Positions 916-60,071 of a stretch of DNA of 64,000 nucleotides are shown here, in pieces (position 1 is the stretch's first letter; the number at the start of each line of letters is the position of its first letter). Location: the sequence record OQ992558.1; one strand, given 5' to 3'. The stretch is from Escherichia phage L14. Both the position numbers and the translations under genes were made by a program. The notes beneath the pieces are model-generated. The model was not told where the DNA came from and did not search any database. It saw nothing but the letters and a program-made list of their open reading frames with translations.

Positions 916-983
916 TTTTATTCTCCGAGATGTTTAATTGCGGTACAGGTATATAATATCATATCCTGTACCAAAGTAAACAA

Positions 984-1316
984 TTATTTTACTACTTTCC
1001 AGTGTTGCATGTCAAGTTTACCGACTTTTTTCATCTTCTCAATTAAGCGTTCGGCACGTTGGCGAGCTGTAACATAATGCCATTCGCCTAATTCATTTTG
1101 TTCAATTTTTCCAACGATTACTGTATTCAATTCATAAATCCAACCAGTAAAGAAATTATGAACTTGAATTGTAAAGGTGAAATCTGTTCCCATACCTTCT
1201 GTTGTTTCTACTTCAATAATATCACCTTCAACTGCCATTAAGAACCACATAGTTTCATCATATTTACCATTGAAGCATTTAGTTTTAACTGCAGCGTTCA
1301 GATTAATCGTTTTCAT
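984..1316 (-). CDS. hypothetical protein (110 aa)
   Basis: ORF in early block. Confidence 0.45.
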   Translation of the reverse strand: MKTINLNAAVKTKCFNGKYDETMWFLMAVEGDIIEVETTEGMGTDFTFTIQVHNFFTGWIYELNTVIVGKIEQNELGEWHYVTARQRAERLIEKMKKVGKLDMQHWKVVK

Positions 1317-4853: not shown

Positions 4854-4883
4854 TTCAATTTCCTCATTTGTTTTGGTAGAGCT

Positions 4884-4913
4884 ATAATATCACAACTCTA
4901 CCGTAAAGTAAAC
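4884..4913 (-). promoter_or_regulatory. T4-early-type promoter (GTTTAC / TATTAT)
   Basis: plus gtaaac 4908-4913, ataata 4884-4889, 18-nt spacer. Confidence 0.45.
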
Positions 4914-4915
4914 CA

Positions 4916-13870: not shown

Positions 13871-14190
13871 CATTATGTTCAGATAAGGTCGTTAATCTTA
13901 CCCCGGAATTATATCCAGCTGCATGTCACCATGCAGATCAGACTATATCTTCAACTTGTTAAAGCAAGTTGTCTATCGTTTCGAGTCACTTGACCCTACT
14001 CCCCAAAGGGATAGTCGTTAGGCATTTATGTAGAACCAATTCCATTTATCAGATTTTACACGGTAAGTAACTAATCCTGATGAAATTATTAAAGGGTAGT
14101 CCTACAATTTAGCACGGGATTGTCTACTAGAGAGGTCCCCCGTTTAGATAGATTACAAGTATAAGTCACCTTATACCTAGGCCTCAATTA
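13871..14190 (-). other. group I self-splicing intron in td, 320 nt, no internal ORF
   Basis: 5' end UAAUUGAGGCCUAGGUAUAAGGUG..., 3' end ...UAACGACCUUAUCUGAACAUAAUG match recalled T4 td intron ends; exon 1 ends in U, intron ends in G. Confidence 0.85.
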
Positions 14191-14739
14191 ACCCAAGAAA
14201 ACATCTACACTGCGTTGATACCATTGTAAATCAAGATAACCATTACGCACATTAAACTGATAGAACATATGACAAGGTGGTAATGCCATATATTTAAGTT
14301 CAGCTGGATTCCACGCAGAAACAATTTGACGCCTATCACTTGGTAGTTTTTTAATACGATCAATAACTTCTATAATTTGGTCTACACCGCCAAAATCGCG
14401 CCACTGTTTTCCATAAATTGGGCCAAGTTCACCACTATGGTATCCTAAATCTTTTGCCTGATTTTCGTAATTTTCATCCCAAACTGTTTTGCCTTGGATT
14501 AACGAATCATGCTGAATTAATCGTAAATCATTGACATTTGTGCTTCCTGATAAAAACCAAAGTAGCTCAGCAATGCAAGCTTTCCAGGCGAGCTTCTTAG
14601 TTGTTACCGCAGGAAAACCTTTAGTTAAATCCCAGCGTAATTTAGTACCGAATAAAGCAATTGTTCCTGTGCCTGTTCGGTCATCGGTTTCATAGCCATT
14701 TTCAAAAATGTCTTTAATTAAATCTTGGTATTGTTTCAT
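14191..14739 (-). CDS. td: thymidylate synthase, exon 1 (183 aa)
   Basis: TS active-site region ...LPPCHMFYQF...; ORF hits stop UAA exactly at intron 5' end. Confidence 0.9.
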
Positions 14740-16575: not shown

Positions 16576-16674
16576 TTTATTCTCCTTAACAAGCTTTAAT
16601 CAAAAGATATAAACAGACCAACATAACTGCTGCCATAATATAAGGTGCGAACATTTTCTTTTCTCCATTAGTTT

Positions 16675-16704
16675 TGATAGGGTAATAGTATCACACTACT
16701 ACCC
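16675..16704 (-). promoter_or_regulatory. T4-early-type promoter
   Basis: plus gtaaac 16699-16704, atagta 16675-16680. Confidence 0.4.
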
Positions 16705-16713
16705 TTCTGTAAA

Positions 16714-17094
16714 CTACTTTTTGAAAGTTTTTCGCAAAAGTTCAATGATTTCATCTACATTGTTTTCGTCAACAATGCAGTGAATTTTTGTTACGCCAGA
16801 AACTTTGTCTTTGACTTCATCTTCTTCAGAAGTCGGTTCTTTATACTCACGAAAACAATGAAATTCGTCTTCACAAACGTTAAAGTAAAAATGCTTTCCA
16901 TTTGCGCATTCAATGTGTTTTATTACTCTAAATCCATCAACAAAGAAAGCTTCTTTAACTTCAAACCATCCGCCATTTTCTTGAATAATTTTAACTATTG
17001 CTGAATTAGAACGTGGGCGATAATTAATAAATGTATCAATAAGTCTTGGAACAAGTTCATACTTTTTGCCGATTTCCATTTTGATTTTCCTCAT
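16714..17094 (-). CDS. hypothetical protein (126 aa)
   Basis: ORF in 32-frd interval. Confidence 0.45.
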   Translation of the reverse strand: MRKIKMEIGKKYELVPRLIDTFINYRPRSNSAIVKIIQENGGWFEVKEAFFVDGFRVIKHIECANGKHFYFNVCEDEFHCFREYKEPTSEEDEVKDKVSGVTKIHCIVDENNVDEIIELLRKTFKK

Positions 17095-17124: not shown

Positions 17125-17352
17125 TTATTGTTCAATCATTCCCATGTAAAATTCTGTGTCTTCAGCATCCATACCATCACAATATTCATTAGCCATAAAG
17201 CGGGTGAGGTCTTCAAGAGGACCTTCAATAACGATTTGAATACTCCAAAACTTAGAATCTTGTACGCTTGTGATACTAAGTTCAGGATAACGATTACGAA
17301 TAATTTCTTCAATATATTCAAAATCAACGATGTCAATATCAACTTTAGCCAT
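17125..17352 (-). CDS. hypothetical acidic protein (75 aa; start at internal Met with AGAGGAAA RBS)
   Basis: RBS-supported start; the longer ORF-track start would overlap the upstream promoter. Confidence 0.45.
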
Positions 17353-17395
17353 ATTATTTTCCTCTTTAATTATCAGCAGTATTGCCGATAGTTGT

Positions 17396-17425
17396 ATAGT
17401 ACCATGGAAGGACAAGGATGTAAAC
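17396..17425 (-). promoter_or_regulatory. T4-early-type promoter
   Basis: plus gtaaac 17420-17425, atagta 17396-17401; part of a repeated promoter module. Confidence 0.45.
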
Positions 17426-17448
17426 CGTTTTGTGAAAAAATTTTTGAA

Positions 17449-17475
17449 ATAAAAAAGGGGACCTCTAGGGTCCCC
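17449..17475 (-). terminator. rho-independent terminator downstream of gene 32
   Basis: GGGGACC/GGUCCCC stem followed by UUUUUU on minus strand, 23 nt after gene 32 stop. Confidence 0.7.
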
Positions 17476-20772: not shown

Positions 20773-23700
20773 ATGGCCGAGATTAAAAGAAAGTTCAGAG
20801 CAGAAGATGGTCTGGACGCAGGTGGCGATAAAATAATCAACGTAGCTTTAGCTGATCGTACCGTAGGAACTGACGGTGTTAACGTTGATTACTTAATTCA
20901 AGAAAACACAGTTCAACAATATGATCCAACTCGTGGATATTTAAAAGATTTTGTAATCATTTATAATAATCGTTTTTGGGCAGCAACGGATAATATTCCA
21001 AAACCTGCTGGAAATTTTAATAGAATTCGTTGGAAAGCATTACGTACTGATGCTGTATATACAACCGTATCATCTGGACCATATCAATTAAAATCCGGAG
21101 AAGCAATTTCAGTAGATACATCAGTTGGCAATGACATTGAGTTTACTTTACCACCTTCTCCGCTTGATGGAGAAACCGTAATAATTCAAGATATCGGTGG
21201 AAAACCTGGCATAAATCAGGTTAAAATAAATTCTTCAAATCAGAGTATTGTCAATTTTAGAGGTGAACAGGTACGTTCAGTTTTAATGACTCATCCAAAG
21301 TCACAGATGGTATTCATTTTTAATAACCGTTTGTGGCAAATGTATATTGCTGATTATAGCAGAGAAGCTGCGATTGTTACTCCATCGACTGCATATCAAG
21401 CACAATCTAATGATTTTATCGTGCGTAGATTTACTTCCGCTGCGCCGATTAATATTAAACTTCCAAGATTTGCCAATCATGGAGATATCATTAATTTCGT
21501 TGATTTAGATAAATTAAATCCACTTTATCATACAATTGTTACGACATATGATGAAACGACGTCAGTGCAAGAAGTTGGAACTCATTCCATTGAAGGCCGT
21601 ACATCGATTGACGGTTTCTTGATGTTTGACGATAATGAGAAATTGTGGAGATTGTTTGACGGGGATAGTAAAGCACGTTTACGCATTATAACAACTAATT
21701 CAAATATTCGTCCAAATGAAGAAGTCATGGTATTTGGTGCGAATAACGGAACAACCCAAACAATTGAACTTCAGCTTCCGACTGATATTTCTGTTGGTGA
21801 TACTGTTAAAATTTCCATGAATTACATGAGAAAAGGACAAACAGTTAAAATCAAAGCTGCTGGTGAAGATAAAATTGCTTCTTCAGTTCAATTGCTGCAA
21901 TTCCCAAAACGTTCAGAATATCCGCCTGAAGCTGAATGGGTAACAGTTCAAGAATTAGTTTTTAATGGTGAAACTAATTATGTACCAGTTTTACAGCTTG
22001 CTTATATCGAAGATTCTGATGGAAAATACTGGGTTGTACAGCAAAACGTTCCAACAGTTGAAAGAGTCGATTCTTTAAATAATTCTACTAGAGCAAGATT
22101 AGGCGTAATTGCTTTAGCTACACAAGCTCAAGCAAATGCTGATTTAGAAAATTCTCCACAAAAAGAATTAGCAATTACTCCAGAAACGTTAGCTAATCGT
22201 ACTGCTACTGAAACTCGCAGAGGTATTGCAAGAATAGCAACTACTGCTCAAGTAAATCAGAACACCACATTCTCTTTTGCAGATGACATTATCATCACTC
22301 CTAAAAAGCTGAATGAAAGAACTGCTACAGAAACTCGTAGAGGTGTTGCTGAAATTGCTACGCAGCAAGAAACTAATACAGGTACTGATGATACTACAAT
22401 CATCACTCCTAAAAAGCTTCAAGCTCGTCAAGGTTCTGAATCATTATCTGGTATTGTAACTTTTGTATCTACTGCAGGAGCTACTCCAGCTTCTAGTCGT
22501 GAATTAAATGGTACGAATGTTTATAATAAAAACACTAATAATTTAGTTGTTTCACCTAAAGCTTTGGATCAGTATAAAGCTACTCCAACGCAACAAGGCG
22601 CAGTAATTTTAGCAGTTGAAAGTGAAGTAATTGCTGGACAAAGCCAAGAAGGATGGGCAAATGCGGTTGTAACACCAGAAACGTTACATAAAAAGACATC
22701 AACTGATGGAAGAATTGGTTTAATTGAAATTGCTACGCAAAGCGAAGTTAATACAGGAACTGATTATACTCGCGCAGTCACTCCTAAAACTTTAAATGAC
22801 CGTAGAGCAACTGAAAGTTTAAGTGGTATAGCTGAAATTGCTACGCAAGTTGAATTCGACGCAGGCGTCGACGATACTCGTATCTCTACACCATTAAAAA
22901 TTAAAACCAGATTTAATAGTACTGATCGTACTTCTGTTGTTGCTCTATCTGGATTAGTTGAATCAGGAACTCTCTGGGACCATTATACCCTTAATATTCT
23001 TGAAGCAAATGAGACACAGCGTGGTACACTTCGTGTAGCTACACAAGTTGAAGCTGCTGCAGGAACATTGGATAATGTTCTAATAACTCCTAAAAAGCTT
23101 TTAGGTACTAAATCTACTGAAGCACAGGAAGGCGTTATTAAAGTTGCAACTCGGTCTGAAACTGTAGCTGGAACGTCAGCAAATACTGCTGTATCTCCAA
23201 AAAATTTAAAATGGATTGTGCAGAGTGAACCTACTTGGGCAGCGACTACTGCGATAAGAGGTTTTGTTAAAACTTCGTCTGGTTCAATTACATTCGTTGG
23301 TAATGATACAGCTGGTTCAACACAGCCATTAGAATCATATGAGAAAAATGGTTATGCAGTATCACCATATGAATTAAATCGCGTATTAGCAAATTATTTG
23401 CCATTAAAAGCAAAAGCCGTAGATAGTAATTTATTAGATGGTCTAGATTCGCTCCAGTTCATTCGTAGGGACATTGCACAAACAGTTAATGGTTCACTAA
23501 CCTTAACCCAACAAACGAATCTGGGTGCCCCTCTTGTATCATCTAGTACTGCTACATTCGGTGGATCAGTTTCAGCAAATAGTACATTAACTATTTCTAA
23601 TACTGGAACGGCAACTCGTCTGATTTTTGAGAAAGGACCTCAAACTGGAACAAACCCGGCTCAAACGATGACAGTCAGAGTGTGGGGAAATCAATTTAGC

Positions 23701-33068: not shown

Positions 33069-33704
33069 TCACAGTTCAGATGCTACAGTGATTACAGCTT
33101 CAATGTTTTCTGCCGAGCGTTTAATGTCAAGATACACATTACCGTTTTTAGCGATTTTACATGACATTCCGATATCAGTAAATTTCTGAATATGGTGTTC
33201 CATCATTTTGTATCCAAAAATTCGCATATTTCCGTTGTTGTTAATTTCAAAATTGCGAATTCCGTGAGTACGTTTTTCTAAAATAGCAAGATAGTTACTG
33301 CGGTAAGTTTCAACTTTTTTAAGAACAAATCCATTTTCATCTAAAAGTTTTAGCATAAGGTCTTTATCTTCTTCCATATCGGAAGTAATCTCACGAGCTT
33401 TACGAGTTGCTCGTTTTTTCAGTAGTTCAGGAGCATTTTCCTGTGCATATAAAGTTGCTGCATTTGAAATAATATCCTGAGCTTCTCCTGTAATGATTAA
33501 TCCATCACCAGATTTCTCTACCAGACCTTTTTTAATCAATACCCCAATATTACTATTAACTACTGCATTACCTAAATCTGGATGCACCTCACGAACTTCT
33601 GCAGCTGTAATGAAATCTTTCTTAGCAATGGTAATTAAAATCGCAGCAGTTTTTTCATTCAGAACATCGTTAGAAGCTTTGATGATGTAAGTTACTTTAG
33701 ACAT
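33069..33704 (-). CDS. motA: MotA middle-transcription activator (211 aa)
   Basis: Matches recalled T4 MotA in length and sequence. Confidence 0.9.
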   Translation of the reverse strand: MSKVTYIIKASNDVLNEKTAAILITIAKKDFITAAEVREVHPDLGNAVVNSNIGVLIKKGLVEKSGDGLIITGEAQDIISNAATLYAQENAPELLKKRATRKAREITSDMEEDKDLMLKLLDENGFVLKKVETYRSNYLAILEKRTHGIRNFEINNNGNMRIFGYKMMEHHIQKFTDIGMSCKIAKNGNVYLDIKRSAENIEAVITVASEL

Positions 33705-33741
33705 TTTAATCTCCGTTTCAGTTCATTTATTTGATAGGTCT

Positions 33742-33770
33742 ATAGTATCACGTTTAAAGCAGAAGTAAAC
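33742..33770 (-). promoter_or_regulatory. T4-early-type promoter upstream of motA
   Basis: plus gtaaac 33765-33770, atagta 33742-33747. Confidence 0.45.
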
Positions 33771-33809
33771 ACTTTTTTGCACTATTTTTCAAGAGCTCTA
33801 ATAAAGTAC

Positions 33810-34037
33810 TTACTTAATGTTCAGATTACGAACTTCGATTTCGTCTTCATGGGCAAAATCAAACTGTTTGAATTCTGTGTCACCTTTAAATTTAAAAATC
33901 ATTGTGAAGAAAGTCAGAACACCAGGTTTTTCTTCACGAACTCCACAAATATCATATTCAATACCATCTACAACCAGTTTGTTAGCAGTCAGAGCATTTT
34001 TAGCTTTAACGATTTCGTTTTCGATTTTAAATTTCAT
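33810..34037 (-). CDS. hypothetical protein (75 aa), motA.1 position
   Basis: ORF between motA and 52. Confidence 0.5.
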   Translation of the reverse strand: MKFKIENEIVKAKNALTANKLVVDGIEYDICGVREEKPGVLTFFTMIFKFKGDTEFKQFDFAHEDEIEVRNLNIK

Positions 34038-34086
34038 TTTTTGTATCTCCGGGTTGTTTGTTTCAGTTCATTTATTTGATAGTTGT

Positions 34087-34116
34087 ATAGTACCATAAAG
34101 CTTTATGCTTGTAAAC
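34087..34116 (-). promoter_or_regulatory. T4-early-type promoter
   Basis: plus gtaaac 34111-34116, atagta 34087-34092; repeated module. Confidence 0.45.
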
Positions 34117-34139
34117 CGTTTTGTGAAAAAATTTTGAAA

Positions 34140-34166
34140 TAAAAAAGGGAGAGCCGAGGCTCTCCC
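34140..34166 (-). terminator. rho-independent terminator (GGGAGAGCC/GGCUCUCCC stem + U-tract)
   Basis: 8-bp GC-rich stem followed by UUUUUU on minus strand. Confidence 0.65.
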
Positions 34167-34171
34167 TAAAA

Positions 34172-34321
34172 TTACTGCATGACTGTGATAACTGTCATGA
34201 TAACACGTTGAATTCCGAACGCAAGAAGACCTCCTGCTACGGCAGGAACAACACCTAAACCCGACAGTAAAATGCCACCAGATACTAATGCAGCGCTTGT
34301 AATACCTATGAATGGACTCAT
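34172..34321 (-). CDS. small hydrophobic membrane protein (49 aa)
   Basis: Hand-translated; ATGA overlap with gene 52 stop; below ORF-track cut-off. Confidence 0.4.
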   Translation of the reverse strand: MSPFIGITSAALVSGGILLSGLGVVPAVAGGLLAFGIQRVIMTVITVMQ

Positions 34322-37198: not shown

Positions 37199-37226
37199 TT
37201 TCTGTTCCTCCGTAGTTGATAGAGTA

Positions 37227-37256
37227 ATAGTACCACGGAAGAACAGTCTTGTAAAC
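37227..37256 (-). promoter_or_regulatory. T4-early-type promoter
   Basis: plus gtaaac 37251-37256, atagta 37227-37232. Confidence 0.4.
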
Positions 37257-37441
37257 AACTTTTTTAAAAATATTCGTAATAAATGTGAATACCAACTACT
37301 ACCGCTGAAACCTGTGCAACCCACCACGCGCAAGCAATAAGTACAGAATTCAAAATTTTCATAATAACCTCATTACAAAAGTAAATGTTAAACAAATTAC
37401 TGGAATACTAATTAACCAAACAAAACACCACCATAATGAAC

Positions 37442-37705
37442 TCATAGTTCAATCTCAACGATTTTCATTTCATTACTATTAATAGCCTCTTTAAGACTAT
37501 CTGAAAGAATTACATTCCAGTGGTCATTCATATGACCATTAACTAAGCGTGTAATTTCTTCAGGAGTTGAAAAATAAGGCTGATCGGACTCCCAATGCGA
37601 TAATCCTAAGCGAGTATAAATCATACCTTCATCATCGCTAGAATATTCAACTGACACAAACTCATCAGTTATTTTATGCTTAGCATAATAAAATTTAAAT
37701 TTCAT
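37442..37705 (-). CDS. hypothetical protein (87 aa; start at internal Met with GGAGAG RBS)
   Basis: RBS-supported start. Confidence 0.45.
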   Translation of the reverse strand: MKFKFYYAKHKITDEFVSVEYSSDDEGMIYTRLGLSHWESDQPYFSTPEEITRLVNGHMNDHWNVILSDSLKEAINSNEMKIVEIEL

Positions 37706-37739
37706 TTTACTCTCCAAATCCGTATCAGTTGATAGTTGT

Positions 37740-37769
37740 ATAGTACCACGGTCCTTGTGGTATGTAAAC
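37740..37769 (-). promoter_or_regulatory. T4-early-type promoter
   Basis: plus gtaaac 37764-37769, atagta 37740-37745; repeated module. Confidence 0.45.
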
Positions 37770-37785
37770 CGTTTTGTGAAAATTT

Positions 37786-38343
37786 TTAAATGGAAAGATA
37801 CCATCCGTTGTAGTTGCTTTTTCTTACAACCTTACGAAGGTCTTCTCTATCACCGATGAACTTCGGAGTGTACTGGATGACACCTGGGTGAATTTCTTTA
37901 GTGTTGAATATAATTATACAGTCAGCGACCTGATGATTCAGAATGGGCCCTAGATTTATTCCAGAACCGTATGGATACTCTCCGCTGCATCCTGTTGTTA
38001 CAGAAATCCAACGTGAGTCAGTTTGATGTGTCTTAACTTCTACACGAAGCCCACAGTATCTTGGATGTGCTAAAACATCCCATGCATATGTATACGGATC
38101 ATCGACATCTTCTTGGCCTTTATTGACATATCCGCTTAGCCAATCTGCCACAAAAAACTCTGCGTACACAGCGATACGACATCTTTCGATAACTTCTGCC
38201 TTATCCTGATTTGGGTTTTGTTTTAAAGAGTATCTTGCAGTATCAGCAATTTTGACCTTCATTTCACTAGTCAAGTCACTGTTCGATAGGGTAAATGTCG
38301 GAATCTGAAATAGTCTCTGTAAACCCGGATTCGTTTTCTGCAT
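37786..38343 (-). CDS. denB: endonuclease IV-like (185 aa)
   Basis: Length and position (between ndd and rIIB) as T4 denB; AAGGAAA RBS. Confidence 0.65.
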   Translation of the reverse strand: MQKTNPGLQRLFQIPTFTLSNSDLTSEMKVKIADTARYSLKQNPNQDKAEVIERCRIAVYAEFFVADWLSGYVNKGQEDVDDPYTYAWDVLAHPRYCGLRVEVKTHQTDSRWISVTTGCSGEYPYGSGINLGPILNHQVADCIIIFNTKEIHPGVIQYTPKFIGDREDLRKVVRKSNYNGWYLSI

Positions 38344-38593: not shown

Positions 38594-38625
38594 ACAATAA
38601 ATCATAATTTTTCCTTAAAACAAAA

Positions 38626-38637
38626 GGGCCGAAGCCC
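38626..38637 (-). promoter_or_regulatory. UUCG-loop stem-loop
   Basis: gggc cgaa gccc inverted repeat. Confidence 0.4.
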
Positions 38638-38643
38638 CTTATT

Positions 38644-38838
38644 TTATTTGAATTGTGCAATTCTTTTTTCTAAACAATCTGCGTAAGATTTCATTGAGAT
38701 GAACTGTGAAAGCAGTAATTCTTGCTCAACTTCATTAATCGTTAGAAACTTTGTGCTTTCTAAAAATTTGCTCAGTGCATTAATTTTGAGCATTAATTGA
38801 TCGTATTCTTCTTTTACTCGTGCTTGATAACCTAACAT
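38644..38838 (-). CDS. hypothetical protein (64 aa)
   Basis: ORF between rIIB and denB. Confidence 0.45.
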   Translation of the reverse strand: MLGYQARVKEEYDQLMLKINALSKFLESTKFLTINEVEQELLLSQFISMKSYADCLEKRIAQFK

Positions 38839-38852
38839 AATTTTCCTTAGTT

Positions 38853-38868
38853 AAGGGCCGAAGCCCTT
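38853..38868 (-). promoter_or_regulatory. UUCG-loop stem-loop (AAGGGC-UUCG-GCCCUU)
   Basis: 6-bp stem immediately downstream of rIIB stop. Confidence 0.5.
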
Positions 38869-39805
38869 ATTTAAATTGTTCAGTAACGTCTTCAACTACT
38901 TCGTATTGGCAGGTACGCATTTTAGCATCGTTGTAATCAATCGGAATTGATACTACATCACGCGGATGCACTTTAACTTTTACAACTCGACTGGTTGAAC
39001 TGCCAAAGTGACGAATATAAGATTTAGAACACACATGCAGACCACGAGAACAAGTTTGTGTATCATCGTCATTCACACGAGTACGTGGCATTTTAACTAC
39101 TTTACCAGGACTGTTATCAAAAGTATTTGAATGACAGTCAAAGTAATTGCTGCGAACTACTTTCCAAGCATAGAAGTAACCATCTTCTGTAATTTCAATA
39201 TCGTTTGCTACCAAGAAATCAAAGAGTCGAGATACCGCTTTTTGGCTTGGGTTTTCCAACAGATTTTCCAAGAACGGAAAATAAAATTCAAAGTTTTCGC
39301 CTTTTTCCATCGAATCGAGAATACGATCAACTAAACCAGACCGCAATTCAATATTTTGATAGAACAAGCTTCCACCTTCAATTCGAACATCACCGGAAAT
39401 ATATTTTTCAACGGCGCGACGAACGTTAATTTTTTGCGCCGCTTCTTCCAATTTATCTGTAACAAGCAGATTAAGAATTTCCTGGAAGTTTGAATGAGTA
39501 TTAGGAGTTGCGTTATAAGTTACACCGTCAACAGTAATTGAAATGAATTTTTTAGATGCATTCCAAATAATGTCAGATTTAGCAACTGGAGCAATAACTG
39601 CATCGCTATTAACTTTAACTGTAATGTCACCGCTAATAGTAACTTTAGAGCGTTCTGCTTCTTCAGCATTTTTCAAAACACGACGGATTGTGTCAACCGA
39701 TACACCTTGCCAATCAGCCAATTCCTGCTGGGTGTAATTACCACTTGAATACAGTTTAACAATTTCAGCTTGTTCGTTTTTGGTCAGGCATTTAATATTG
39801 TACAT
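38867..39805 (-). CDS. rIIB: rIIB (312 aa)
   Basis: Matches recalled T4 rIIB length and N-terminus. Confidence 0.9.
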   Translation of the reverse strand: MYNIKCLTKNEQAEIVKLYSSGNYTQQELADWQGVSVDTIRRVLKNAEEAERSKVTISGDITVKVNSDAVIAPVAKSDIIWNASKKFISITVDGVTYNATPNTHSNFQEILNLLVTDKLEEAAQKINVRRAVEKYISGDVRIEGGSLFYQNIELRSGLVDRILDSMEKGENFEFYFPFLENLLENPSQKAVSRLFDFLVANDIEITEDGYFYAWKVVRSNYFDCHSNTFDNSPGKVVKMPRTRVNDDDTQTCSRGLHVCSKSYIRHFGSSTSRVVKVKVHPRDVVSIPIDYNDAKMRTCQYEVVEDVTEQFK

Positions 39806-45597: not shown

Positions 45598-45768
45598 TAC
45601 AATTTCCTCGTTAATTGAACATTGGAGCGATGCGTTTCAGAAGAGTAGCAGCACCTTTGGCAAATTTTCCATTTTATTCTCCAAGTTATTTTCTGTATCA
45701 GTAGTTGATATTGATATAGTACCATAATCAACTACTGATGTATATAGTTTTATGAAAAAATTTAAACT

Positions 45769-46266: not shown

Positions 46267-46310
46267 AGTTATCTCTCACTTGTTAAAAAGATTTTATACT
46301 CCACGGGACC

Positions 46311-46340
46311 ATTATACTCTGGTCCCAAGAGTTTGTAAAC
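46311..46340 (-). promoter_or_regulatory. T4-early-type promoter (GTTTAC / TATAAT)
   Basis: plus gtaaac 46335-46340, attata 46311-46316. Confidence 0.45.
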
Positions 46341-47388: not shown

Positions 47389-47415
47389 TTTATTATCCTC
47401 AGTAGCTATGGTGTT

Positions 47416-47445
47416 ATAATACCACAACTAACCGAGGAAGTAAAC
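47416..47445 (-). promoter_or_regulatory. T4-early-type promoter
   Basis: plus gtaaac 47440-47445, ataata 47416-47421. Confidence 0.4.
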
Positions 47446-54692: not shown

Positions 54693-54756
54693 AGTGCTCT
54701 CCTCTATAAGATAATTCTATTATACCATACTCATTTTGGAAAGTAAACCGGTAAAA

Positions 54757-54782
54757 TGAAAAAAGGACTCCCGAAGGAGTCC
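54757..54782 (-). terminator. rho-independent terminator after soc; GGACUCC-UUCG-GGAGUCC + U-tract
   Basis: Identical hairpin to the one at 1404-1421; 8 nt downstream of soc stop. Confidence 0.7.
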
Positions 54783-54790
54783 TTGAATTA

Positions 54791-55027
54791 TTAACCACCT
54801 ATTTCTGTAGGCGTAAACATTGCAGCATTCTTAGTTTTCCAAGTTGTTGCATCGGAAACTACATCAGAATAAGCTGCTTTTTCTGACGGAAAGATTTGAT
54901 AATGAGAATCTGCAATACGGTGTTCATTTGAATATACATCAAATGCTACAGAAACTTCCATACCTTTAACTTCTTTGCCTTCACCTGCTGGATGAGTAAA
55001 GGTCTTGATGTTAACGAAACCACCCAT
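54791..55027 (-). CDS. soc: small outer capsid protein Soc (78 aa)
   Basis: VNIKTF...YQ-FPSEKAAYS motif matches recalled T4 Soc. Confidence 0.75.
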   Translation of the reverse strand: MGGFVNIKTFTHPAGEGKEVKGMEVSVAFDVYSNEHRIADSHYQIFPSEKAAYSDVVSDATTWKTKNAAMFTPTEIGG

Positions 55028-58585: not shown

Positions 58586-58614
58586 AACAATCTCCTCATT
58601 TAACCAACAAGACT

Positions 58615-58644
58615 ACTATACCATAGTCTTGTCAGCTTGTAAAC
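58615..58644 (-). promoter_or_regulatory. T4-early-type promoter at 3' end of gene 41
   Basis: plus gtaaac 58639-58644, actata 58615-58620. Confidence 0.4.
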
Positions 58645-60071
58645 TAAAATTTTAATTCATTTGCCAAAGCATCTAACTGAGCTCGAGTCGATTCATTTCT
58701 TTGATAGCGATTCTGTTCAGCCTGAATCTGTTGTGAACCTGCTACTTCACTCACTTCAGTTGGAGTAGAATCTTGTTCAATTTCTACCCATTTTTGGTTT
58801 CCTTTTTGAACACCCATCAAAAACTTATTCCACTTATTCTTATCACCATATCGTGATTTGATTTGCTTAATGAGTTGTTGTTCAGCAGCTGCTAGCTCCT
58901 CGGTTTCAATGACCGCAAGCATAAAATCAGCTGTTGCTGGAAGACCAGCAGATTCTGCGATATCACTCATGTTAACATCAGAAGAGTCCCAAGCTTGTTT
59001 ACCGACCTGTGCTGCAGTCCAAAGAACAGTTTCTGTTTCAACAGCCAGAGCACGTAATTCCTCTGCAATAGCTTTAACAGTTGTGTAACTATTTTCTGAA
59101 TAAACTCTAATGCGGCAAGATTTACAAATACCTAGATAGTCGACAATAATGATTGTTGGAACAAAATTCTTCTTGAGCTTTAATTCATTTAAAAGTGATC
59201 GAAATGTATTAGCGTCTGCTCCACCAGTAGGATATTGCTTAACGATTAAACGACCAAGAGTAGATTTCTCACGCCATTTTTCCATTTTTCCTTTATACTC
59301 AGCGTAAGAAATATGTCCATCATCAATATCGTCAAGAGAAACATCGAGCATGTTAGCATCAATGCGCTTAGCACAGACTTCTTCTGCCATTTCCATGGAG
59401 ATATAAAGAACGTTATGACCAAGCTGCAAATAATCTGCTGCTAATGAGCAAAGTCCTAATGATTTACCAACGTTAACGCCAGCCATTAAAACGTTCAGTG
59501 TTCCAGTTTCAGCTCCGCCTTTTGTAATTTTATTCAAAATACGAAGTTTAAATGGAACTTTACGAGCTTTATTCATATAAGATAGCCAGCGTGCTTCATA
59601 ATCATCCATCCAATCATGACCGACGTAGCTATCAAATGAAATTGATAATGCTTGGCGCATGATGTCAGGAATAGCACCAACATCCGGCATTTTCTTATTT
59701 CGTTTTTCCGGAGGAAGCTCAGCATTAGTTTGAATTTCGATTATTTTAGACGTAGCATTAAACATCGCCCTTTGCTGAACATATTTTTCTGTTTCTTTTA
59801 TTAACCAGCTGTGGTCTTCCGGAGAATCAGCTAGTTTTGAAATAAGTGTTTTTACACCAGAATATTCTGTTTCAGTAAATGAACTATTTTCTAATGCAAC
59901 ATTTAACGCATTAATAGATGGAACGCTATGGTACTCATTAACATGAGATTTAATTAATTTGAATGTATTTTTAGCTGGACCACTTTCAAAATATTCTGAA
60001 TCCATATATGGCCAAACTTTTGAAAAATAAGCTTGATCAAATATGAGATGAGAAAGAATAATTTCTACCAC
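58644..60071 (-). CDS. 41: gp41 replicative DNA helicase (475 aa)
   Basis: DnaB-family; Walker A GVNVGKS; length equals T4 gp41. Confidence 0.92.
   Translation of the reverse strand: MVEIILSHLIFDQAYFSKVWPYMDSEYFESGPAKNTFKLIKSHVNEYHSVPSINALNVALENSSFTETEYSGVKTLISKLADSPEDHSWLIKETEKYVQQRAMFNATSKIIEIQTNAELPPEKRNKKMPDVGAIPDIMRQALSISFDSYVGHDWMDDYEARWLSYMNKARKVPFKLRILNKITKGGAETGTLNVLMAGVNVGKSLGLCSLAADYLQLGHNVLYISMEMAEEVCAKRIDANMLDVSLDDIDDGHISYAEYKGKMEKWREKSTLGRLIVKQYPTGGADANTFRSLLNELKLKKNFVPTIIIVDYLGICKSCRIRVYSENSYTTVKAIAEELRALAVETETVLWTAAQVGKQAWDSSDVNMSDIAESAGLPATADFMLAVIETEELAAAEQQLIKQIKSRYGDKNKWNKFLMGVQKGNQKWVEIEQDSTPTEVSEVAGSQQIQAEQNRYQRNESTRAQLDALANELKF

Follow-up and report, generated by a model that had tools for sequence, protein, structure and literature searches.

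The nearly identical blocks near positions 17380, 34060 and 37720 of the window (the whole stretch of 64,000 nucleotides that was analysed, from Escherichia phage L14) are best explained as a sub-family of the early promoters of a T4-like phage. Two of the three are fused to an upstream terminator, and the blocks would double as homology for recombination; we assign this reading a probability of roughly 0.85. The feature is of a kind already known, since T4 early promoters and PeSL (promoter-early stem-loop) cassettes, including their use as recombination homology, have been described before. Two details were not found in the T4 early-promoter and PeSL literature cited here: the transfer of promoter cores between the nrdC.10, frd.3 and motA.1 loci, which are 16-90 kb apart, and the presence of a cassette carrying a phrog_10955 ORF at different loci in two genera. 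These are new details of a known kind, and the finding opens no new question.

The window belongs to a Tequatrovirus (T4-like coliphage), and the region round the repeats is ~98% identical to many isolates. The gene order is that of T4 (frd.3, gene 32, tail-fibre genes 34-38, t, asiA, motA, motA.1, gene 52, ndd, denB, rIIB). The plus strand of the window corresponds to the clockwise T4 map, and the minus strand therefore carries the early genes and, when taken as functional units, the repeats. Copies 1, 2 and 3 of the repeat sit downstream of gene 32, motA.1 and denB, respectively, and the ORFs beside the repeats are frd.3, motA, denB and small ORFs of unknown function. Gene 32 was assigned from annotated relatives, motA.1 (34172-34321) is a 49-aa ORF overlapping the end of gene 52, and the frd.3 product matches the Pfam family Phage_FRD3 with an E value of 5e-39. 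The three copies and the elements adjoining them are as follows.

17457..17475, minus strand: gene 32 intrinsic terminator, GGGGACC-CTAGA-GGTCCCC followed by a T run (terminator scan; RNA fold -14.3 kcal/mol)
17387..17456, minus strand: copy 1, predicted frd.3 early promoter (repeats, pattern scan; orthologous promoter in 7 relatives)
17125..17386, minus strand: copy 1 leader (GGCAATACTGCTGATAA...) and frd.3 coding sequence (ATG at 17352, 75 aa; Pfam Phage_FRD3)
34146..34167, minus strand: intrinsic terminator after motA.1, AGGGAGAGC-CTCG-GCTCTCCCT followed by a T run (terminator scan; RNA fold -18.6 kcal/mol, z -4.9)
34078..34145, minus strand: copy 2, predicted early promoter (repeat family, 19-mer and 18-mer, pattern scan, relatives)
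37731..37787, minus strand: copy 3, predicted early promoter after denB (repeat family, 19-mer and 18-mer, pattern scan)
37442..37730, minus strand: copy 3 leader (AACTGATACGGATTTGGAGAGTAAA) and downstream 87-aa ORF of unknown function (phrog_2390)

A repeat search of the window places the three copies in one family (D1; 17385-17443, 34076-34134 and 37729-37787), with 80% identity over 59 nt and weaker members at 16674, 37216 and 45705. The 19-mer TTTCACAAAACGGTTTACA occurs exactly three times in the window, always on the minus strand (expected with up to 3 mismatches, 0.09), and the 18-mer TGGTACTATACAACTATC also exactly three times (expected with up to 3 mismatches, 0.06). A 23-mer from one of the leaders, CTATCAAATAAATGAACTGAAAC, is found exactly twice, with 0.00 expected. 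Because these counts are far above expectation, the repeats are real and not the result of chance. The same is true of the partial copy that the earlier note had placed at 33715-33770: its segment 33715-33750 is paired with 34060-34095 in a second family (D10), with 92% identity over 36 nt, and the two contain the exact 23-mer. All copies are direct repeats in one orientation.

In copies 1 and 2 the order of elements on the minus strand is a G+C-rich hairpin with a T run, ATTTCAAAA(A)TTTTTTCACAAAACG, GTTTACA, 14 variable bases, TGG, TACTAT, ACAACTATC, a leader, a Shine-Dalgarno (SD) sequence and an ATG. A consensus scan found TTTACA, 17 nt and TACTAT at 17424-17396, 34115-34087 and 37768-37740. 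In copy 1 the -35 hexamer TTTACA (17424-17419) is followed by the spacer TCCTTGTCCTTCCATGG, the -10 hexamer TACTAT (17401-17396) and then ACAACTATC. Copy 2 has its -35 at 34115-34110, the spacer AGCATAAAGCTTTATGG and its -10 at 34092-34087; the corresponding elements of copy 3 are at 37768-37763 and 37745-37740, with the spacer TACCACAAGGACCGTGG, which can form a weak hairpin. Both are again followed by ACAACTATC. In all three the 17-nt spacer ends in TGG, which makes the -10 an extended one (TGn). An AT-rich UP region lies between about -40 and -60, with TTTTTTATTTCAAAA(A)TTTTTT or TTTAAAAATTTT as the upstream sequence. The promoters lie upstream of, and are co-oriented with, genes bearing an SD and an ATG: frd.3 for copy 1, the 75-aa ORF and then motA for copy 2, and the 87-aa ORF for copy 3. 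The leader between promoter and SD/ATG is 30-50 nt long. Orthologous sites are found in the Tequatroviruses T4, T6, RB9, RB27, KIT03, GADU22 and pSe_SNUABM_01, and the promoter interpretation thus stands; promoter activity in this phage is predicted from the consensus together with this orthology.

Two of the three copies have a terminator directly upstream (-14.3 kcal/mol for copy 1 and -18.6 kcal/mol for copy 2), and in both the T run of the terminator runs on into the UP region; the stems differ between the two. The earlier note had attributed these terminators to genes 32 and 52. This is right for gene 32, but the second follows motA.1 and ends the 52-motA.1 unit. Copy 3, which starts directly behind the denB stop codon, lacks a terminator; all that was found there is the weak spacer hairpin (-6.7 kcal/mol, z -1.9).

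The GTTTAC and TACTAT elements had been described together with a leader shared by every block. The promoter elements are present in copies 1-3, but the leader caaataaatgaactgaaac occurs only in the copies at 34060 and 33715, and those at 17380 and 37720 have other leaders. That of copy 1 contains a small hairpin (-9.2 kcal/mol, z -5.1). The common leader was considered as a structured or known RNA and rejected, as it has no Rfam match and a predicted fold of 0 kcal/mol; the td group I intron gave the sole Rfam match anywhere in the window.

The extent of the similarity was analyzed by comparing, segment by segment, 20 minus-strand sites in the window that have the early-promoter pattern followed by an SD and an ATG. 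Outside the spacer, the trio of copies 1-3 shows identities of 0.79-0.90, with a median of 0.50 for all pairs and 0.79 for the next-best pair. Identity within the trio is 0.67-0.87 over the 30 nt that lie upstream of the -35, compared with a mean of 0.41 for early promoters, and 0.9-1.0 over the 10 nt after the -10, compared with a mean of 0.37. The spacer gives a different picture: identity within the trio is 0.41 against an early-promoter background of 0.36, and equals the background once the common TGG is discounted, the 14 variable bases being unrelated between copies. The similarity is thus not confined to the -35 and -10 hexamers but extends well beyond both. The blocks lie where the earlier note had them, but "nearly identical" describes only two conserved blocks that flank an unrelated spacer, ~40 nt upstream and ~18 nt downstream of this free-to-vary segment. 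The three copies form a distinct sub-family among the early promoters of the phage. The longest unbroken identities between copies within the window are only ~18-25 nt.

Further relations of the trio within the window are more distant.

45705..45763, minus strand: degenerate fifth member, its -35 decayed to TATACA (family D1, 73%)
37216..37274, minus strand: remoter early promoter of the same class, with GTTTACA, 17 nt, TGGTACTAT and then TACTCTATCAA (repeat family, pattern scan)
16674..16732, minus strand: upstream of frd.2, a remoter early promoter of that class, with a strong inverted repeat enclosing the -10 (repeat family, pattern scan)

The degenerate member retains TGGTACTAT, and its leader AACTACTGATACAG resembles the T4 motA leader.

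Some of the conservation seen in the blocks could be due to strong selection on promoter strength. It has to be asked whether such selection accounts for all of it, that is, whether the copies have each converged under independent selection on an optimal T4 early promoter and have no role in recombination. T4 early promoters generally have an extended consensus beyond the -35 and -10 (PMC2988021), and the unconstrained spacer differs between the copies, as if functional positions alone had been retained; both observations fit convergence. In the 17 other early promoters of the window, however, the UP region and the sequence after the -10 differ greatly (median identity 0.50). Since these 17 do without CACAAAACGG and ACAACTATC, the two segments are not required. 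The comparison with related phages, described below, also speaks against convergence, and as a sufficient explanation we regard it as improbable.

For this comparison every member of the sub-family was extracted from a 22-kb interval of T6, GADU22, RB9, pSe_SNUABM_01, RB27 and KIT03, and from the T4 loci. An exact-pattern scan of IMG/VR returned only 7 stretches from 4 contigs, and the GenBank phage collection was used instead. A sub-family promoter is present at the same three loci in 7/7 relatives, making 8 genomes with the window. The segments CACAAAACGG and ACAACTATC, invariant in the trio, are nearly invariant across the 7 relatives, and the spacers and the ORFs that follow are distributed as listed here.

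frd.3 locus, spacer TCCTTGTCCTTCCA (or a close variant): window, GADU22, RB9, T6, RB27
frd.3 locus, spacer AGCATAAAGCTTTA: T4, KIT03
frd.3 locus, spacer TGCCGTGAGGACTG: pSe_SNUABM_01
motA.1 locus, spacer ACCAAAGCATACTG, motA directly after: T4, T6, RB9, RB27, KIT03, pSe_SNUABM_01
motA.1 locus, spacer AGCATAAAGCTTTA, 75-aa ORF after: window, GADU22
denB locus, constant spacer, ORF starting MKFKFYYAKHK: window, T6, GADU22, KIT03, pSe_SNUABM_01
denB locus, constant spacer, short ndd.6-region ORF: T4
denB locus, constant spacer, ORF starting MFTTAELK: RB9, RB27

The copy 2 spacer, AGCATAAAGCTTTATGG, is the allele of the T4 frd.3 and nrdC.10 promoters. The latter belongs to a fourth locus, outside the window, between nrdC.11 and nrdC.10, where T4, T2 and EPIMAM01 carry the AGCATAAAGCTTTA allele. 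The T4 copies at nrdC.10 and frd.3 are identical over ~70 nt. In T2 the nrdC.10 copy is a mosaic, with a terminator stem like that of gene 32, the AGCAT spacer and a leader of the denB type. More generally, the type of terminator, the spacer allele and the type of leader are combined in mosaic fashion across loci and genomes. At the denB locus, promoter, leader and SD are often conserved up to the ATG, after which one of three alternative ORFs follows. The two main arrangements at frd.3 are both widespread: out of roughly 480 records, ~69 have the T4 type and ~277 the window type at an identity of at least 95%.

Identity of an unconstrained spacer at different loci in different phages is hard to obtain by convergence, and we therefore favour ectopic exchange through the conserved flanks. 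The identical 14-nt alleles, the mosaic copies such as that of T2 at nrdC.10, and the indels and replacements that end inside the blocks all count against convergence. The last of these is seen both in the alignment with T4 and among the other relatives.

The clearest rearrangement is at motA, where the window differs from most of the relatives listed above by a cassette of 345 bp.

34060..34095, minus strand: left direct repeat, -10 and leader CTATCAAATAAATGAACTGAAAC (family D10; exact 23-mer occurring twice; leader 0 kcal/mol)
33810..34037, minus strand: cassette ORF of 75 aa and unknown function, phrog_10955 (phrog match, genome comparison)
33742..33799, minus strand: copy 4 (partial), putative motA-proximal early promoter, with a UP region unlike that of the other copies (pattern scan, segment comparison)
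33715..33750, minus strand: right direct repeat, -10 and leader, followed by GGAGATTAAAATG and motA (33069-33704) (family D10, 23-mer)

The leader CAAATAAATGAACTGAAAC is common only to the copies at 34060 and 33715, where it forms direct repeats. These repeats (23 nt exact; 36 nt at 92%) bound the cassette, and their period is 345 bp. Copy 4 has the -35 hexamer TTTACT (33769-33764) and the -10 hexamer TACTAT (33747-33742) separated by a 16-nt spacer, so that the promoter core spans 33769-33742, and no stem-loop is adjacent to it. Besides the window, GADU22 has the 75-aa ORF, whereas T4, T6, RB9, RB27, KIT03 and pSe_SNUABM_01 lack it; at an identity of at least 95% it is found in about 137 phage records and is missing from many others.

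Aligned with T4, the window agrees with it over the motA.1 terminator and the UP region as far as the -35, and once more from the motA SD (GGAGATTA) on. What lies between these two matching stretches in the window is another spacer and the -10, then the leader CTATCAAATAAATGAACTGAAAC with the 75-aa ORF behind it, and lastly a second promoter with that leader repeated. Simple insertion of an ORF between identical repeats was rejected as an explanation: the spacer and the motA leader have also been swapped, and the proximal UP region differs. Because the alignment with T4 shows a replacement and not a clean insertion, the cassette at motA has a history of more than one event.

Homologues of the 75-aa ORF are found in comparable settings elsewhere. 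Salmonella phage S16 (Gelderlandvirus) has its homologue at another locus, with the homologues of nrdC.10 and nrdC.11 on either side; a terminator and an early promoter come before it, and ~50-nt direct repeats of the -10 and a CAAATAAATGG... leader flank it. A Klebsiella phage homologue has the same promoter-ORF-promoter layout. Such an arrangement, a promoter-ORF-leader unit with duplicated ends whose locus changes from genus to genus, would result if a circular promoter-ORF unit were integrated by homologous recombination. Taken together, the spacer alleles found at different loci in different phages, the 345-bp cassette between direct repeats and the ORF swaps at the denB locus support the suggestion that the repeats provide homology for recombination.

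The proposed mechanism has a transcriptional and a recombinational side. Host sigma-70 RNA polymerase would bind the UP region, the -35 sequence (G)TTTACA, the TGn motif and the -10 sequence TACTAT, and, immediately after infection, transcribe frd.3, the 75-aa ORF together with motA behind it, and the 87-aa ORF that lies downstream of denB. From what is known of T4, transcription would start ~7 nt beyond TACTAT, the likely first base being the A of CTATC, and the terminators would insulate each unit from upstream transcription. The GGAG SD sequences of motA and of the two small ORFs are, we assume, candidate RegB cleavage sites. In copies 1 and 2 the merging of the terminator T run into the UP region yields a compact terminator-plus-promoter cassette, known in the literature as a PeSL.

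Since the blocks recur at dispersed loci, they may serve as portable homology for the very active homologous recombination of the phage. The outcomes would be ectopic conversion of promoter cores and the gain, loss or replacement of the small ORFs that the blocks flank. We infer that the exchange proceeds by general homologous recombination, possibly via mini-circles, and the simplest route would use identities of 20-70 nt. Patches of under 50 bp are the figure cited for T4 recombination (PMC2839356); the identities of 18-25 nt found here are short for efficient recombination.

A dedicated mobile or site-specific system might be imagined instead, in which the copies are recognition sites of a recombinase or are spread by co-conversion with a homing endonuclease (SegG, MobD). 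T4 segG lies upstream of gene 32 and mobD next to nrdC.11, hence near two of the member loci; in the window, hairpins are found around the -10 of many early promoters, and stem-loops have been the subject of speculation as protein targets (PMC2839356). The allele distribution does not follow the endonuclease, however, as the AGCAT allele at frd.3 is found in T4 (segG+) and in KIT03 (segG-), and RB9 (segG+) has TCCTT. An inspection of the repeats and the neighbouring ORFs revealed no terminal inverted repeats, target-site duplications, or transposase or recombinase gene beside the copies, and the stems differ from one another. We consider such a system very unlikely. SegG/MobD co-conversion was set aside as the driver of exchange since the frd.3 allele is not correlated with the presence of segG, and a transposable or MITE-like repeat was rejected, every hallmark of one being missing.

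It is also quite unlikely that the copies are an actively exchanging set in which cores with spacer or -10 hairpins are moved over tens of kb by a targeted, structure- or protein-directed process, with the nrdC.10-type core as a donor that repeatedly overwrites the frd.3 and motA.1 promoters and carries the phrog_10955 ORF between loci and genera.

The conserved segments could in principle have a regulatory meaning, CACAAAACGG and ACAACTATC being bound by a factor, from the phage or the host, that controls frd.3, motA and the small ORFs together, or setting the response to ADP-ribosylation of RNA polymerase by Alt. Their invariance in the trio and near-invariance in the 7 relatives, unlike other early promoters, would suit such a role, as would the fact that only some T4 early promoters are stimulated by Alt with no single position explaining which (PMC2988021). 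Yet the two segments are the proximal UP/-35 flank and the discriminator/start region, which RNA polymerase itself contacts. To our knowledge, moreover, no factor binds CACAAAACGG and ACAACTATC, and we judge regulator sites very unlikely. A regulatory role of this kind is compatible with promoters that double as recombination homology.

The preferred reading, early promoters that also supply homology, agrees with what is known of T4 and its relatives. T4 early promoters combine UP, -35, TGn and -10 elements with extra consensus regions (Hinton 2010, PMC2988021); in competition with host promoters they prevail, and Alt stimulates some of them (PMC2988021). The present copies resemble them in having GTTTAC(A/T), a 17-nt spacer, TGn, TAnnnT and a UP region, in their counter-clockwise direction and in their location upstream of early genes. 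Compilations of T4 early promoters are reportedly to be found in Liebig & Rueger, Wilkens & Rueger and Miller et al. 2003. The T4 genome has the same promoters at the frd.3, motA, denB-downstream and nrdC.10 positions. Nothing essential differs from T4; the phage studied here has another spacer allele at frd.3 and an extra promoter and ORF at the motA locus.

In RB49 and phi1, PeSLs were defined as composites of an early promoter and a stem-loop that are AT-rich upstream and have an SD and ATG at their end (Arbiol et al. 2010, PMC2839356). They are concentrated in hyperplastic regions, next to indels; in RB49 and phi1 their promoter and terminator activity has been demonstrated, and mini-circles between neighbouring PeSLs have been detected (PMC2839356). 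In the PeSLs of PST and T4, which have TTTACW, 17 nt and TAYWAT, the stem-loop lies immediately upstream of the promoter, and indels are close by; the worked example of PeSL exchange, ndd.4/.5, falls in the ndd-denB region, to which copy 3 also belongs (Comeau et al. 2014, PMC4122927). The present elements are alike in their stem-loop terminator, AT-rich region, early promoter, SD and ATG, in being intergenic and in lying beside indels or replacements of small ORFs. Judged by sequence, copies 1 and 2 have every feature of a PeSL that can be checked in this way, whereas copy 3, a plain early promoter without a terminator, is unlike a full PeSL. Mini-circles have been shown for the PeSLs of RB49 and phi1 only.

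Two other systems are related. In the account of Repoila et al. 1994 given in PMC2839356, T4-type early promoters and stem-loops flank variable small genes at the IP loci (ipI to ipIII) of T-even phages; as described there, these PeSL-like elements differ from the present copies in their loci and in their more AT-rich stems. The morons of lambdoid phages, as summarised in PMC2839356 from Hendrix et al. 2000, are extra genes with their own promoter and terminator between conserved genes. According to that summary they lack flanking conserved repeats and are thought to arise by illegitimate recombination, whereas here the flanking regulatory repeats give homology.

For annotation, the family marks three predicted strong early promoters (with one partial and one degenerate copy) and two terminators. 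It accounts for the small-ORF differences around motA and denB in otherwise near-identical phages. It also illustrates cleanly how, according to the PeSL idea, a regulatory cassette can act as a recombination linker as well, with one spacer allele at three loci across the genus and an ORF cassette between duplicated -10 and leader sequences. The blocks may also be of use in engineering T4-like therapeutic phages, as natural, tolerated insertion points.

A last observation concerns the frd.3 transcript. In T4, the frd.3 RNA belongs to the most abundant of the NAD-capped phage RNAs, and in the same study the 5' termini of NAD-RNAs in general closely matched the start sites determined by dRNA-seq (bioRxiv 10.1101/2024.04.04.588121).

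The 75-aa cassette ORF (phrog_10955), which in the window lies in a 345-bp unit bounded by direct repeats of the -10 and leader, has homologues in two further phages:

L016 (Salmonella phage S16) 1380-1860: homologue of the cassette ORF
L017 (Klebsiella phage K65_evo1) 1400-1920: homologue of the cassette ORF

The S16 homologue is placed between the nrdC.10 and nrdC.11 homologues and is flanked on either side by ~50-nt direct repeats comprising the -10 plus leader; the architecture is the same as that of the window's cassette, but at another locus and in another genus. The promoter sub-family has its fourth member at the nrdC.11/nrdC.10 locus, beyond the stretch covered by the window, and a fifth, degenerate copy within the window:

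L021 (T4) 330-440; L018 and L019 (the same region of other phages) 1480-1600: fourth member, between nrdC.11 and nrdC.10
Window 45705-45763, minus strand: degenerate fifth copy

The T4 promoter at nrdC.11/nrdC.10 is identical to the T4 frd.3 promoter over ~70 nt, and in T2 this copy bears a gene-32-like terminator stem. The fifth copy retains TGGTACTAT, with its -35 degenerated to TATACA; its leader, AACTACTGATACAG, resembles that of T4 motA, and a very short ORF of ~11 codons separates it from the next gene. The frd.3 leader features a small stable hairpin, UAUCGGCA-AUAC-UGCUGAUA (17364-17390, minus strand; -9.2 kcal/mol, z -5.1), immediately 3' of the presumed start site; the other leaders are without structure.

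Repeated terminator or terminator-like hairpins occur elsewhere in the window:

1393-1430 and 54754-54791: further pair of terminator-plus-early-promoter composites, with the hairpin GGACTCCCGAAGGAGTCC in common
514-551, 38623-38648 and 38840-38877: dispersed, repeated terminator-like hairpin (A)AGGGGCCGAAGCCCCTT

The paired hairpins are 87% identical over 38 nt, each directly followed by a GTTTAC-type promoter. The hairpin (A)AGGGGCCGAAGCCCCTT is of the GGGC...GCCC motif type, which has been associated with T4 deletion end-points (PMC2839356).

Six of the 20 early-promoter-like sites on the minus strand of the window have a strong inverted repeat around the -10 hexamer:

Near 58610-58645, 47410-47445, 46300-46340, 16680-16715, 4880-4915 and 950-985, minus strand: early promoters with the -10 inside an inverted repeat

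Their minimum free energies lie between -11.5 and -19.7 kcal/mol, with z at or below -3.9, and equal stability was reached in none of 300 shuffles. These sites match the promoter-early stem-loop subclass of phi1 and RB49 in which the stem-loop overlaps the -10 box.

A group I catalytic intron (13919-14200, minus strand; Rfam RF00028, 70.3 bits, E 8e-16) sits where T4-like phages have the td (thymidylate synthase) intron. Diverged direct repeats of 29-35 nt, spaced at 108-120 nt or multiples thereof, lie in the coding region of gene 34, the proximal long tail fibre (22177-23099, plus strand), and probably reflect recurring protein motifs.
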